Source: a virus
Lineage: Duplodnaviria > Caudoviricetes
Virus record (IMG/VR): IMGVR_UViG_3300006467_000454
Coordinates: 1-64,000 of that record
Strand: one strand, 5' to 3'
Length of the DNA stretch: 64,000 nucleotides
Each line of letters opens with the position of its first letter. Positions within the stretch are counted from its first letter, which is position 1. Position numbers and translations under genes: made by a program. Of this stretch, positions 2,641 to 12,909 are shown in pieces. The notes below the pieces were generated by a model, which did no database searches, had not been told where the DNA came from, and worked only from the letters and a program-made list of their open reading frames with translations.

Positions 2641-4278
<1,638 letters not shown>

Positions 4279-5857: not shown

Positions 5858-6976
5858 ATGTATAGTGCTGTTATCGGCTTAGGTTTTGGAGACGAGGGGA
5901 AAGGTCTTACGACTGATTACCTTTGCTCCAAAGCTAAAAATCCACTTGTTGTAAGATTCTCAGGTGGACAGCAAGCAGGGCATACGGTTCATCTAGATGG
6001 TGTCCGTCATGTGTTTTCAAATTTTGGTTCCGGAACAATGCGAGGAATTCCTACTTATTGGTCAGAATTTTGCATTGTTGACCCTATTGGTATCGTAAAT
6101 GAATTACAAATTTTGGAAGAGAAAGGGTTCAGCCCCGTATTATTAATTGATTCCAAGTGTCCAGTGACAACTCCTTATGATGCGTATAAGAATCAAAAAG
6201 AGGAAGAAGTTAATCAACACGGAAGTTGTGGGGTTGGGATAGGTACTACTATGGCTCGTGAAGAAGCCTTCTATTCGTTAACCGCTTTAGATTTAATGTT
6301 CCCTTATATCTTAAAAATAAAATTGGAGAATATCCGTAAATTTTATAATTTTAAGGAGAATGTTAAATTAGATAGGTTCTTTGAATGTGTTGGGATAATC
6401 CATAAGAAATTCAATATCAAGATTGAAAACGAATTCCCAAGCCATAGGGGATTTAGTGATTTTATTTTTGAAGGTTCTCAGGGATTATTGTTAGATCAGC
6501 ATAACGGGTTCTTCCCTAATGTTACAAGGGCTAATATTGGGAGCAAGAATTTGCTTAAATTAGACTCTGGGAGGGTAAACTATCCAGAATTATATTTGAT
6601 CACGAGAGCTTACCAAACTCGTCATGGCAACGGGGCTATGACTAACGAAAACATTGGGCATAATATTCGTGAAAATGAAAATGAAACGAATGTAACAAAT
6701 AAGTACCAAGGGGAATTTCGTAGAACTCTATTAGATGTAGATTTGCTTGCTTATGCGATATTACGAGATGATTTCATCCGTGATAGCCAAAGTAAAAATT
6801 TAGTGATAACTTGCCTTGATCATATTGTTGATGAATGGAGGTTCACTTATAACGGGCAAATTATAACTGCTTTGAATGAAAATGATTTCATTGAAAGGAT
6901 CTCTACAATACTTTGCATTGATAGTGTTTATATAAGTAGGGGGGATTCGGCTAAAGATATCGTAAAATGGAAGTGA
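5858..6976 (+). CDS. purA: divergent adenylosuccinate synthetase-like protein
   Basis: GLGFGDEGKG, RFSGGQQAGHT, HGSCGVGIG, FEGSQGLLLD..GFFP.VT, RAYQTRHGNG. Confidence 0.8.
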   Translation: MYSAVIGLGFGDEGKGLTTDYLCSKAKNPLVVRFSGGQQAGHTVHLDGVRHVFSNFGSGTMRGIPTYWSEFCIVDPIGIVNELQILEEKGFSPVLLIDSKCPVTTPYDAYKNQKEEEVNQHGSCGVGIGTTMAREEAFYSLTALDLMFPYILKIKLENIRKFYNFKENVKLDRFFECVGIIHKKFNIKIENEFPSHRGFSDFIFEGSQGLLLDQHNGFFPNVTRANIGSKNLLKLDSGRVNYPELYLITRAYQTRHGNGAMTNENIGHNIRENENETNVTNKYQGEFRRTLLDVDLLAYAILRDDFIRDSQSKNLVITCLDHIVDEWRFTYNGQIITALNENDFIERISTILCIDSVYISRGDSAKDIVKWK

Positions 6977-9057: not shown

Positions 9058-9088
9058 TTTGTATAGAACAAAATTTGAGATACTTTTG
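9058..9088 (+). promoter_or_regulatory. sigmaA-type promoter of the RNA operon
   Basis: TTTG-N19-TACTTTTG, with the palindrome at 9015-9035 upstream. Confidence 0.8.
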
Positions 9089-9113: not shown

Positions 9114-9190
9114 TGGGGTATAGCTCAGTTGGGTAGAGCATTACATGCTGTTACATGTAAAGGTCAATGGTTCGATTCCATTTATCCCTA
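9114..9190 (+). tRNA. tRNA-Asn(GTT)-like RNA with enlarged anticodon arm
   Basis: Normal D arm (GCTC/GAGC) and T arm (AATGG-TTCGATT-CCATT). The anticodon arm TTACATG-CTGTTA-CATGTAA is 3 nt longer than canonical. Confidence 0.7.
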
Positions 9191-9191
9191 C

Positions 9192-9609
9192 GAAGTTCAT
9201 TGAAATTAATTGGAGACTATTTTGGACGAGGGTTCGATACCCTCCAGCTCCACAAACGAAAACGGATGGAAGTACAACTAAAGTTTTCGGGTGTACTATG
9301 ACATGTAATCGCTCAGCGTTGCAGGTATCAGGTTAGGCACTAAACTTATTAGTGGGGGAGGATTGATTAGTGATCGCCTCTCCTGCAAGCCAAATAGCCT
9401 AGTTTTGACCGTGGGTACTAGGAATTAAATATTAAAAACTGATGGTGACCCAGCGAGAGTGCTGGCTAGGGGTTGAATGGCTTTGACAGAATAGAATAGT
9501 AGGTTAATGGAGGCTTCAAAACCGCTTTAAACGGCAAAACAATTAAACTTTTCGATAACGAGCCTAAGATGGCTGCGTAATTGAACGTTCTCCCTGACGT
9601 AACAGGGAA
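9192..9609 (+). ncRNA. ssrA: circularly permuted (two-piece) tmRNA
   Basis: The acceptor piece (9192-9252, GGACGAGGGTTCGATACCCTCCAGCTCCA) precedes the coding piece (from 9469, GGGGTTGAATGGCTTTGACAG). G3-U70 pair is present. Tag frame 9533-9580 encodes GKTIKLFDNEPKMAA*. Confidence 0.9.
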
Positions 9610-9611
9610 TT

Positions 9612-9694
9612 GGAAGATTGGCAGAGTGGTTAATGCAGCGGTTTGCTAAATCGTGGTCAGAAATGATCCGGAGGTTCGATCCCTTCATCTTCCG
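9612..9694 (+). tRNA. tRNA-Ser(GCT)
   Basis: GGAAGAT/ATCTTCC acceptor, GCGGT-TTGCTAA-ATCGT anticodon arm, long variable arm. Confidence 0.92.
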
Positions 9695-9817
9695 CAACTT
9701 ATTTGATGTTTTGTTATTTAAGTTTTATTAGATGTTTGGGTTTTGCAAGGTGGGTACTTTGGGTGGTGCCCACCTTATCTATCAGCCCTTTATTTTTAAT
9801 AGTTAATCTTTAAAATT

Positions 9818-11407
9818 ATGTCGAAGTATAATCGAAAAAAAGAAATTGAAAAGGTGCCAACTCTACAAGGTGGAGTAGGGGTACAAATGTCGGACGAGCA
9901 CGCATTGGTTGGGTTGCTTTCTACAGGTTTGGAAGGTAAGTTCTATGAAATGGAAAAAACTCGTGAGGATCGCTTAAAAGACCTTATTCGTAAGGTGGCA
10001 AAGAAAGATAAATATCTTGTTGCGCAAATGATCGTTTATACCCGTACTGTATTCGGGCAACGTTCAATCACTCACCGTGCTGCTGTTGAATTAGCGAAAT
10101 ACCTCCCAGGAGAAGATTGGGGTAAATGGTTTTTCTCTAAGTGGAATAAGAAAGAAAATAAAGGTGGGGTAATCTTCCGTCTTGATGATATTTTAGAAAT
10201 TGCAGCCTGTTATAAGCATTTCAATAAGGATGCGAACCTTTCTAACGCAATCAAAAAAGGATTTGCAATGGCTATTGAGTCTGCTGACCCATACGAGATA
10301 GCTAAGTACCAAGGGAAAGGTAAGGATGTATCTTTGGTGGATATTGTTAATCTTGTTCACCCAAATCCATCTTCGAAGAACGCTGAAGCATTGAAACAGC
10401 TTATTGCAGGTAATTTGAAGCAGTTTAATACTGCCGAAGATAAGAACACCAAATCCGGACAAGAAGTTGCTAAGAAAGTTAAAGCAGGTAAAATCACCAA
10501 AGAGGAAGCGAAAGTTGAATTGAAGGAGAAAAAGTCTGAAAACTGGAAGGCACTTATCGGTGAAGGTACTATCGGATATTTATCATTGTTGCGTAATATC
10601 AAGAATATTATTAACACTGATGCAAGTTTGGTAGAATCAATGTGTGAATTGCTTGTTGATAAAAGGAAGGTTAAAGAGTCTTTAGTTTTCCCTCACCAAA
10701 TTGATTTGGCTTTATGTGAATTAGAAAGCCAAGGGTTTGATCAACAAACTATCAATAGGATCCAAAGCACGTTATCAACTGCTTATGAAATTTCAGTTGA
10801 AAACGTAAAAGAACTTGGTATGGATGCCCATACTGCGGTTGTGTATGATACTTCCGGATCAATGCAAGGTAAAGAAGGTGGCTATTGGGGATTCCCTAAT
10901 GCATCTATCAACGGGAAAGAATCTAATTATTCCCCATTGAATAAAGCTTCTTTAATTGCTGCCACTTTAGCAAAAGGGCTTGGGTGTGATGTTTATCAAT
11001 TTGCAACAACTTGTGAGAAGGTAATGTATCGTGCAATGGATTCAGTATTTTCTATAAAAGATAAGTTCAGGCAAATGCAAGGGAGAGTTGGCCATGGGAC
11101 AACATTTGGCTCAATTTTTGGTAAATTGGATAAACCTTACAACAGGATATTCATTATAACCGATGGGCAAGGTAACGATTCCATATTGAAGAACTCAACA
11201 TTCCAAAGCTATAAGCGTCAATTTGGTGTGAATCCATATATCTACTATGTTAATTTATGTGGATATGATAAATTAATGTTCAAGGAAAATGAAAGATTTT
11301 TCCATATTCCAGGATATTCAGCGAGTATTTATGAGCTTGCTTCTAAGTATGAGGTGGATCCTAAAGCATTGATAAAAGAAATTAGAAAAATTAGGATAAA
11401 GTACTAG
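9818..11407 (+). CDS. Ro60/Rsr-like TROVE domain RNA-binding protein
   Basis: TROVE-like features (FYE...RL..LI; R.DDILEI.A; KKG.A....A..Y..AKY; SLVD.VNLVHP; W..LI..G..GY..LLRN; FPHQI) and a C-terminal vWA (VYDTSGSM, IITDGQ). Confidence 0.9.
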   Translation: MSKYNRKKEIEKVPTLQGGVGVQMSDEHALVGLLSTGLEGKFYEMEKTREDRLKDLIRKVAKKDKYLVAQMIVYTRTVFGQRSITHRAAVELAKYLPGEDWGKWFFSKWNKKENKGGVIFRLDDILEIAACYKHFNKDANLSNAIKKGFAMAIESADPYEIAKYQGKGKDVSLVDIVNLVHPNPSSKNAEALKQLIAGNLKQFNTAEDKNTKSGQEVAKKVKAGKITKEEAKVELKEKKSENWKALIGEGTIGYLSLLRNIKNIINTDASLVESMCELLVDKRKVKESLVFPHQIDLALCELESQGFDQQTINRIQSTLSTAYEISVENVKELGMDAHTAVVYDTSGSMQGKEGGYWGFPNASINGKESNYSPLNKASLIAATLAKGLGCDVYQFATTCEKVMYRAMDSVFSIKDKFRQMQGRVGHGTTFGSIFGKLDKPYNRIFIITDGQGNDSILKNSTFQSYKRQFGVNPYIYYVNLCGYDKLMFKENERFFHIPGYSASIYELASKYEVDPKALIKEIRKIRIKY

Positions 11408-11680: not shown

Positions 11681-11753
11681 GGTCCGTTCGACAAGCGGTT
11701 TAAGTCACCAGACTTTCGATCTGGAGTCATGGGTTCGAATCCCATACGGACTA
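11681..11753 (+). tRNA. tRNA-Glu(TTC)
   Basis: GGTCCGT/ACGGACT acceptor; CCAGA-CTTTCGA-TCTGG anticodon arm. Confidence 0.9.
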
Positions 11754-11755
11754 CT

Positions 11756-11872
11756 AAAAGGATGGTAAGGAAACAGGCTTACTTCGTAGCTCAAGTGGTA
11801 GAGCAATTTACTGTTAATAAATGTGTTAGGGTTCAAGTCCCTCTGTAGCCTATCCAATTTCCCTCCTTTTTT
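11756..11872 (+). ncRNA. Y-RNA-like RNA 2 containing D, anticodon (GTT) and T arms without an acceptor stem
   Basis: AAAAGGA..GG/CCCTCCTTTT and AGGCT/AGCCT stems; GGCTTACTTCG motif; ATTTA-CTGTTAA-TAAAT anticodon arm. Confidence 0.72.
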
Positions 11873-11944
11873 GAAAAGAAGCTTTTTGTTTTTTGATTAT
11901 ATTTTGGTTCATTCATCGGGGAGATAAAGTTCTCCTCGGTTTTT

Positions 11945-12021
11945 AGTCTCAGGGGCTGCTGGGTGTGGCCACCTCCCTGTCACGGAGGAAGATCAGATGG
12001 GTTCGAATCCCATTGGGACTG
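11945..12021 (+). tRNA. tRNA-Asp(GTC)
   Basis: AGTCTCA/TGGGACT acceptor; CCTCC-CTGTCAC-GGAGG anticodon arm. Confidence 0.88.
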
Positions 12022-12023
12022 CT

Positions 12024-12154
12024 AGGGGTAGTAACAGGAAAGGGTTACTTCGTATAATTAGCTCAATTGGTCGAGCATTTGTTTTAGGCACAAAGGGTTG
12101 CGGGTTCGATCCCCGTGTTATAAATAAAGATCACCCTCCTATTTTCCTCCCCTT
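12024..12154 (+). ncRNA. Y-RNA-like RNA 3 enclosing an in-order tRNA-like cloverleaf (anticodon TAG, short variable loop)
   Basis: AGGGG/CCCCT and AGGA.AGGGT/ACCCTCCT stems; GGGTTACTTCG motif; TTTGT-TTTAGGC-ACAAA anticodon arm; GCGGG-TTCGATC-CCCGT T arm. Confidence 0.72.
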
Positions 12155-12157
12155 TAT

Positions 12158-12230
12158 ATGGATGTGGCGTAGTTGGTAGCGCACCTGCTTTGGGAGCAGG
12201 GGGTCGTAGGTTCGAGTCCTACTATCCATA
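12158..12230 (+). tRNA. tRNA-Pro(TGG)
   Basis: ATGGATG/TATCCAT acceptor; CCTGC-TTTGGGA-GCAGG anticodon arm. Confidence 0.9.
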
Positions 12231-12236
12231 CAAATA

Positions 12237-12472
12237 AGTCCAATGGCAGAATTGGACAATTGCGCCTATCGGGTAGCAGTTGGGGTTGAGCCCATTGTTA
12301 GGGGTAGGTGGTAACAGGCGTAACATGGATGTGATGAAGCTTTGGGGTCGCTCCCTGATTCATTCGGAATTGAAAACCAGATTCATTGAAGTGGAAAGTA
12401 CTGTAATTAGGAAGCAGGGAGTACGTATTACCTGTGGAATATCCGTTGGGGGTTCGAGTCCCCCTTGGGCTT
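12237..12472 (+). ncRNA. about 235-nt tRNA-framed structured RNA of unknown family
   Basis: Acceptor AGTCCAA/TTGGGCT, D arm and perfect T arm, with about 180 nt of paired insert in place of the anticodon and variable arms. Confidence 0.7.
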
Positions 12473-12480
12473 ATTTACTT

Positions 12481-12555
12481 AGTCGTATGGTATAGCTGGT
12501 TTAATACACAAGAATTTGGCTCTTGAGATCCTAGGTTCGAATCCTAGTACGACTT
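12481..12555 (+). tRNA. tRNA-Gln(TTG)
   Basis: AGTCGTA/TACGACT acceptor; CAAGA-ATTTGGC-TCTTG anticodon arm. Confidence 0.88.
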
Positions 12556-12565
12556 CTAAATTTAT

Positions 12566-12680
12566 AGAGATATGGCAGCCTAAATACTAGTCGGGGTGGG
12601 TCAGGGTGCAACTTCATGATAGTAAGAGCTCTGGTGGTGTTTCTTGATTGATGCTGGGGGTTCGAGTCCCTCTTTCTCTA
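12566..12680 (+). ncRNA. tRNA-like RNA: acceptor stem + T arm + one long hairpin
   Basis: AGAGATA/TTTCTCT acceptor; GGGGG-TTCGAGT-CCCTC T arm; TAGTCGGGG/TTCTTGATTG and CAGGGT/GCTCTG stems; no D stem. Confidence 0.6.
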
Positions 12681-12682
12681 CT

Positions 12683-12756
12683 GTGTTGTTAGCTTATGTG
12701 GTAAAAGCGTCAGATTGTGGTTCTGAAGATTAGGGTTCGAGTCCCTGCAGCACCCA
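12683..12756 (+). tRNA. tRNA-His(GTG)
   Basis: GTGTTGT/GCAGCAC acceptor; TCAGA-TTGTGGT-TCTGA anticodon arm. Confidence 0.85.
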
Positions 12757-12773
12757 GTTTAAAATATATTTTT

Positions 12774-12847
12774 GGGTAGGTAGCTCAGATGGCTAGAGCA
12801 GTTGACTGTTAATCATCAGGTCGGGAGTTCGAATCTCCCCCTTCCCT
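12774..12847 (+). tRNA. tRNA-Asn(GTT)
   Basis: GGGTAGG/CCTTCCC acceptor; GTTGA-CTGTTAA-TCATC anticodon arm. Confidence 0.85.
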
Positions 12848-12909
12848 CAGTTAAAATTAGGGTGACTATGTTTTAGCCACCCTATACATGTTTAACCAAA
12901 TTAAAATGT

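Follow-up and report, generated by a model that had tools for sequence, protein, structure and literature searches.

A minimal circularly permuted two-piece tmRNA gene in a phage of Bacteroidota type

The locus and its RNA genes

We analysed a 64,000-nt stretch of DNA (hereafter the window) from a virus record of 108,320 bp that has direct terminal repeats. The closest match to the portal protein of the phage comes from an uncultured human faecal phage (45% identity), followed by the portals of Chryseobacterium phage MA9V-3 (31% identity) and Bacteroides phages (about 30%). A promoter pattern of Bacteroidota type occurs 8 times in the window, versus 2.7 matches expected, and 0 of 100 shuffles reached 8. 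These observations, together with a tRNA-like domain near-identical to that of Bacteroidota one-piece tmRNA, bear out the first-pass annotation, which had taken the phage for a Bacteroidota type; a Bacteroidota host is well supported, and it probably belongs to the Flavobacteriales. Elsewhere in the window we noted an adenylosuccinate-synthetase-like gene (5858-6976) that matches phrog_1211, annotated '2-aminooxy adenylosuccinate synthetase' (PurZ-like), which could mean modified adenine in the phage DNA, and a phage GroEL-type chaperonin gene (2647-4278, 543 amino acids, E = 1e-178 to phrog_5725).

tmRNA is an RNA that frees stalled ribosomes. The tmRNA gene of the window and the elements around it are as follows:

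9058-9088, plus strand: Bacteroidota-type promoter-like site (TTTG, 19 nt, TAnnTTTG); a pattern match with putative function
9114-9190, plus strand: tRNA-like gene with a 7-bp anticodon stem and a 6-nt loop, its 3′ end adjoining the acceptor piece (Rfam tRNA model, 53.6 bits; fold)
9191-9252, plus strand: acceptor piece of the tmRNA, with the helix 2 3′ strand, T arm, acceptor stem 3′ strand and discriminator A (RF04321 alignment, sequence, co-fold, 3′-trailer check)
9228-9232 / 9233-9239 / 9240-9244, plus strand: T arm (sequence)
9245-9251, plus strand: acceptor stem 3′ strand, followed by discriminator A at 9252 (sequence)
9253-9468, plus strand: spacer of 216 nt between the pieces, which must be removed to free both acceptor-stem ends
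9469-9611, plus strand: coding piece, with the acceptor 5′ strand, helix 2 5′ strand, 15-nt linker, tag frame and terminal hairpin (sequence, ARAGORN, RF04321 alignment, co-fold)
9469-9475, plus strand: acceptor stem 5′ strand, with G1 at 9469 (sequence)
9487-9494 with 9217-9224, 9504-9509 with 9198-9203, and 9512-9517 with 9192-9197: the three segments of helix 2 (sequence)
9533-9580, plus strand: tag frame, with resume codon GGC at 9533, 15 codons, a Met-Ala-Ala end and stop TAA at 9578-9580 (ARAGORN)
9591-9608, plus strand: 6-bp hairpin after the stop, with no T run (fold z = -2.5)
9612-9694, plus strand: tRNA-Ser(GCT), its 5′ end adjoining the coding piece (ARAGORN; Rfam tRNA model, 52 bits)

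This phage gene is a genuine circularly permuted (two-piece) tmRNA of unusually small size. Two detectors that are independent of each other agree on it. ARAGORN, in the permuted mode that the first-pass annotation had proposed as a check, called a permuted tmRNA with a tag identical to the one first read from the sequence. The Rfam model RF04321 (tmRNA_permuted) matched 9192-9580 with 60.5 bits (gathering score 47; E = 3e-9 over the whole window), well past chance level, and the acceptor 3′ half lies upstream of the 5′ half, the order that defines membership of RF04321. The T arm, acceptor strands, discriminator, helix 2 and G1 can all be read off the sequence where they had initially been placed. 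The acceptor strands pair over 7 positions, including a U5-G wobble and the G3-U70 pair recognized as an alanine determinant at the outset (G9471-U9249), and the T arm with its TTCGA-type loop completes the tRNA-like domain. CCA is not encoded after 9252; CAA comes next.

When the acceptor piece was co-folded without constraints with the 5′-most 67 nt of the coding piece, an acceptor stem and a T arm formed together with a helix 2 in three parts, the latter with the same pairings as in the first reading, so that a helix 2 joining the tRNA-like domain to the tag region is present. When the full-length pieces were co-folded, the minimum-energy fold had the tag region, and not the pre-tag region, pairing with the 5′ terminus of the acceptor piece, so that relatives had to be compared before the structure could be decided; the choice between the two predicted folds is made on comparative data only. 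Taken together, sequence, co-fold and covariation show that the two pieces, of ~62 and ~143 nt, are held together by the 7-bp acceptor stem and a helix 2 of ~20 bp.

The predicted mature pieces (62 nt for the acceptor piece, 143 nt for the coding piece) total ~205 nt, compared with 213 + 83 nt for the chains of Caulobacter two-piece tmRNA and 363 nt for E. coli tmRNA (PMC1168896). The small size reflects a minimal build, as had been proposed, in which there is no space for the usual pseudoknots. Only 15 nt (9518-9532) separate helix 2 from the resume codon, which lies 64 nt after G1, leaving no room for pseudoknot 1. The 31 nt from the tag stop to tRNA-Ser hold one 6-bp hairpin and a few flanking bases, and thus pseudoknots 2-4 are absent as well. 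Pseudoknot 1 occurs in nearly all natural tmRNAs (PMC1168896), and a form without it might accordingly work poorly or differently. E. coli tmRNA, however, still tags well when its pseudoknot 1 is replaced by a hairpin or single strand (PMC4236655), which makes a natural form without pseudoknot 1 credible.

A family of minimal two-piece genes

Relatives were fetched with exact and degenerate DNA patterns from the tRNA-like domain, which gave 117 viral loci; searches of viral contigs with the TROVE protein encoded near the tmRNA and with the portal protein found no relatives. ARAGORN made 93 tmRNA calls on all collected loci, 77 permuted and 16 standard, so that uncultured phages, among the loci collected, very often carry a two-piece tmRNA gene. 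The permuted genes fall into two builds. Most of the 77 (from IMG/VR contigs, L016-L131) are of the RF01850 (beta) type, with spacers of 31-251 nt, and score 117-165 bits against that model. The other build, minimal and including the window, was defined by a GGN resume codon 55-64 nt after G1, no encoded CCA, a short, Bacteroidia-type D-loop region and a helix 2 in three parts, all of which the window gene has; these genes match RF01850 in the tRNA-like core only. The minimal family comprises 22 distinct genes, the window and 21 more: a marine subgroup of ~15 genes, four further contig genes (L004, L047, L081 and L131), and those of the crAss-like phage cr50_1 and of Chryseobacterium phage MA9V-3.

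The last two already carry a 'tmRNA' feature in GenBank. Both MA9V-3 (PV245944.1, 22766-23124) and cr50_1 (MT774375.1 / NC_055868.1, 39374-39869) have the permuted order and minimal build of the window, with a Gly resume codon 59-62 nt after G1, no encoded CCA and a Bacteroidia-like tRNA-like domain. They differ from the window in their tags, and their spacers (60 nt in MA9V-3, 214 nt in cr50_1) are unrelated in sequence to the 216 nt of the window. The MA9V-3 gene, unlike that of the window, has a terminator at its end and no flanking tRNAs, while cr50_1 has a tRNA-like gene on the 3′ side only and the window has tRNA-type genes on both sides. The distribution is patchy, as no tmRNA was found in the related Bacteroides phage DAC19 or in the partial record MT835500. 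The first-pass annotation had suggested an independent permutation event; as a singular event in this phage this does not hold, since the family has at least 22 distinct genes on many phage contigs, two of them annotated in GenBank. We found no description in the literature of a pseudoknot-free, Bacteroidia-like two-piece tmRNA family. The minimal two-piece build is an undescribed variant, although public records label copies of it as tmRNA and standard tools find them.

The structure was assessed on a MAFFT alignment, made with no structural information, of the 5′ coding parts and acceptor pieces of the 22 genes. RNAalifold recovered all three segments of helix 2 along with the T arm and acceptor stem. 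Over all pairs, 91.9% of the pair cells were standard pairs, versus a maximum of 81.8% in 500 column shuffles; for helix 2 the figures were 86.5% and 72.6%, and pairs with changes on both sides numbered 19 against at most 17, figures that support the structure and fall short of proof, the column-shuffle control ignoring relatedness. Compensating changes between distant members are plain in the co-folds. The tRNA-like domain is kept in all 22 genes, and G3-U70 is invariant (22/22).

The reading frame is conserved as well. All 22 members have a UAA-type context followed by a Gly resume codon 55-64 nt after G1; a preference for upstream elements of the UAA/UAG type before the resume codon is known (PMC4236655). 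Nearly all tags end in Ala-Ala (that of cr50_1 ends in Gly-Ala), and in the marine subgroup the changes in alanine codons of the tag are synonymous. The preservation of frame, context and Ala-Ala end, with synonymous changes, speaks for selection on the peptide. The tags nearest to that of the window are those of L081 and L131, both of which likewise begin with Gly-Lys.

Origin of the permuted order

Three permuted lineages are recognized in bacteria, in Alphaproteobacteria, some Betaproteobacteria and Cyanobacteria (RF01849, RF01850 and RF01851, merged as RF04321; PMC11915505). This is the range that the first-pass annotation had given for two-piece tmRNAs; it stands for bacteria and is incomplete as written, since phage cases had already been published (PMC9004378). 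Of 53 two-piece structures detected in an ARAGORN survey, 50 belonged to aquatic phages (PMC9004378), and in the 2025 tmRNA database Bacteroidota have 24,380 standard genes versus 48 permuted calls (PMC11915505). The window gene shares with the bacterial two-piece lineages the permuted order, a tRNA-like domain made of two RNAs, G3-U70 and a tag frame, yet it fails their individual models: it scores 18.6 bits with the beta model (gathering score 84; tRNA-like core only) and 10.8 with the alpha model (gathering score 50), and the cyanobacterial model gave no match in the window at E <= 1. It also differs from these lineages in having no pseudoknot 1 and no encoded CCA, and its total (~205 nt) is lower than that of Caulobacter tmRNA.

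Like the window gene, the two-piece tmRNAs known from aquatic phages (Melnitz, pelagimyophages; PMC9004378) and the genes of RF01850 type in IMG/VR contigs are phage-borne and permuted with a variable spacer. They differ in having a gap of the size of pseudoknot 1, a resume codon 82-109 nt after G1 (64 in the window), an encoded CCA, tags that begin with Ala-Asn-Asp and one more base in the D-loop region. We had at one point taken the phage genes with Ala-Asn-Asp tags for alpha-type, which was wrong, as they match the beta model RF01850. A 16-nt T-arm motif considered as a Bacteroidota marker was also ruled out, being common to the beta-type phage genes.

One-piece tmRNAs of Bacteroidia (e.g. 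L134/L009, L067, L133 and L135) are, unlike the window gene, ~395 nt long, in standard order, with all pseudoknots and a resume codon at about position 96. They nevertheless share with it the U5-G wobble, a Gly resume codon after a UAA-type context and the lack of an encoded CCA. The tRNA-like domain of the window matches the one-piece tmRNA of a Bacteroidetes metagenome-assembled genome at 51/53 positions and a Bacteroides-type gene at 50/53, and both values exceed its match to any other permuted gene. Among 185,579 species genomes, the 25-nt 3′ end of the window gene occurs exactly in only 3, all Bacteroidota. One-piece genes of Flavobacteriales have a short D-loop region, a Gly resume codon and no CCA, as the minimal genes do. 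A tree built on 79 columns places the minimal genes beside one-piece genes of Bacteroidia (SH-aLRT 85) and separates them from the main beta-type cluster, with no resolution inside the group that they form with the one-piece genes. One of the collected loci (L003:102-540) holds a one-piece phage tmRNA with exactly the 29-nt 3′ end of the window gene; ARAGORN places its tag start only at position 163, giving an unusually long pre-tag region.

These likenesses would be explained if the order of a Bacteroidia-type gene had been permuted separately from the known lineages. By sequence comparison we rate a separate permutation for the minimal family at roughly an even chance; if real, it would date from an ancestor of the family rather than from this phage. 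The same observations have to be read with some care, since a phage tmRNA must fit the SmpB, synthetase and RNase P of its host, and its tRNA-like domain could therefore converge on, or recombine with, the host gene. The minimal family may alternatively be a shrunken offshoot of the beta-type (RF01850) phage tmRNAs whose tRNA-like domain was later adapted to, or recombined with, that of a Bacteroidota host, an origin that we think possible and rather less probable. Genes of the marine subgroup do resemble beta-type phage genes in helix 2a, in the stretch that precedes the linker and in the run-up to the T arm. In addition, two genes that are beta-type by homology of the pre-tag region (L090 and L106; 74% identity, 89.8 bits) agree with the marine subgroup in having Gly as resume codon, a spacer of 19 nt and no encoded CCA; we had considered these two as intermediates from Bacteroidia and rejected this, their pre-tag region being 74% identical to beta-type genes. 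The tree leaves the question unsettled, even though its placement of the minimal genes speaks against a beta-type source, as do the closer match of the window domain to one-piece genes than to any permuted gene, the confinement of its exact 3′ end to Bacteroidota and the failure of the window gene with the beta and alpha models.

Processing, function and significance

The two pieces abut tRNA units, as first noted, and both units are real. For the tRNA-like gene at 9114-9190 ARAGORN returned 'tRNA-???' with a two-base anticodon, and decoding is probably not its role. A 6-nt 'anticodon' loop, again with a two-base anticodon in ARAGORN, is also present in the tRNA-like gene of cr50_1 (L002:2890-2961). 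These tRNA-like genes beside tmRNA, in the window and in cr50_1, may be cutting signals instead of decoders. tRNA-type genes adjoining both ends are found only in the window among the 77 permuted genes, cr50_1 having only the one on the 3′ side. Most minimal-family genes begin immediately behind a TAnnTTTG box and are closed by a hairpin that carries a T run, and L004 and L012 have a hairpin and T run where the window has the 9591-9608 hairpin. As the window hairpin is without a T run, transcription can read on, and it is reasonable to suppose that tRNA processing generates the outer ends of the window tmRNA: position 9191, where the acceptor piece begins, would be set by the cut behind the upstream tRNA-like gene, and the 3′ end of the coding piece at 9611 by the RNase P cut at tRNA-Ser.

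The spacer (9253-9468) appears to carry no information of its own. It folds no better than shuffles (z = -0.57), has no open frame of more than 30 codons and no plausible gene, and gave neither a match in 50,697 phage records nor similarity to the spacers of six relatives. Spacer length ranges from 16 to 216 nt across the minimal family, and a length of about 200 nt common to three genes, which we had considered, was thus due to chance.

Downstream of tRNA-Ser (region 9695-11407) lies a strongly structured stretch of 106 nt (z = -3.8, with a 12-bp hairpin), followed by a gene for a TROVE/Ro60-like protein of 529 amino acids (9818-11407). After it comes a tRNA gene cluster (11681-12848), and all of these together with the tmRNA make up an RNA-centred island. 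The cluster includes a further atypical tRNA-like element at 11782-11848 (39.6 bits with the Rfam tRNA model, no ARAGORN call). We found no genes for SmpB, a CCA-adding enzyme or RtcB in the phage, and none of its own tRNA genes encodes CCA, so the phage has to depend on enzymes of its host.

From these features and from general tmRNA biology we propose the following course of events. The promoter-like site at 9058-9088, which sits 26 nt ahead of the first tRNA-like gene and heads the RNA unit, would give a single transcript with the tRNA-like gene, acceptor piece, spacer, coding piece and tRNA-Ser. Host RNase P would cut ahead of G1 (9469) and of tRNA-Ser (9612), a 3′ tRNA-processing enzyme such as RNase Z would cut after the discriminators at 9190 and 9252, and the host CCA-adding enzyme would complete the 3′ end at 9252. 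The molecule would be charged by the host alanyl-tRNA synthetase via G3-U70 and brought by host SmpB to ribosomes stalled on broken mRNAs. Translation would then resume at GGC 9533, adding Ala and the 15-residue tag with its Ala-Ala end. The likely benefit to the phage is that ribosomes are kept free while host and phage mRNAs are degraded.

We grade the permuted tmRNA of the window as probably functional, from comparison of its sequence with its relatives, and consider with good confidence that it is a working phage two-piece tmRNA gene of a minimal, pseudoknot-free type of Bacteroidota phages. The loss of all pseudoknots, and the lack of an SmpB of the phage's own, would also suit a decoy that does not tag, an RNA binding SmpB and perhaps the synthetase so as to block or divert host trans-translation. 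Such a role has been proposed for the molecule of mycobacteriophage DS6A that consists of a tRNA-like domain only, and a DS6A-like molecule is reported to inhibit tmRNA in E. coli (PMC4131195, PMC11915505). A decoy, however, needs no tag frame, whereas the frame, resume context and Ala-Ala end are conserved in the 22 genes with synonymous changes, and helix 2, which positions the frame, covaries; we therefore regard a decoy as improbable. The small size without pseudoknots and the patchy occurrence among related phages might instead mark a decaying relic with no function. This we think very improbable, given pairing kept by compensating changes, an intact tag frame and an invariant G3-U70 in 22 genes from unrelated samples. 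That the reversed order of the pieces is an artefact of assembly is extremely improbable: we found no point in its support, and 77 viral contigs, independent of one another, have the same order, as do two phage genomes in GenBank, of which one is from a cultured phage.

In the course of the searches we also noted a 69-nt RNA (L010:1617-1685, plus strand; L008:6469-6538, minus strand; also in L136 and L137), which consists solely of an acceptor stem of tmRNA style with G3-U70, a small hairpin and a T arm, with a T run behind it. The copies in Winogradskyella thalassocola and an uncultured Maribacter are 100% identical, and each of the two has a normal tmRNA elsewhere in its genome. The RNA was not found in 59 other sampled genomes of the family, and is thus probably on a mobile element. 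This RNA recalls the DS6A molecule.

A tagging tmRNA remains the preferred reading of the window gene. The fuller account, in which an independent permutation derived from Bacteroidia gave the smallest natural tag-encoding tmRNA (~180-205 nt, no pseudoknot), working with host SmpB, and in the window the ends are cut by tRNA punctuation and not set by a promoter and terminator, is put forward tentatively, at somewhat below an even chance for all its parts together.

What is new in the window copy is its double tRNA framing, and with it the family extends past the crAss-like phages to a large phage related to a Chryseobacterium phage. The location of the window gene in an RNA island, near tRNAs and a Ro60-like protein, is a hint of some connection with RNA damage in the course of infection. 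A conserved family without any pseudoknot shows what a tagging tmRNA can dispense with, offers a small natural substrate for structural and biochemical work, and bears on how often the tmRNA gene was permuted. Ribosome rescue thereby joins the translation toolkit of abundant Bacteroidota phages, including the crAss-like phages of the gut.
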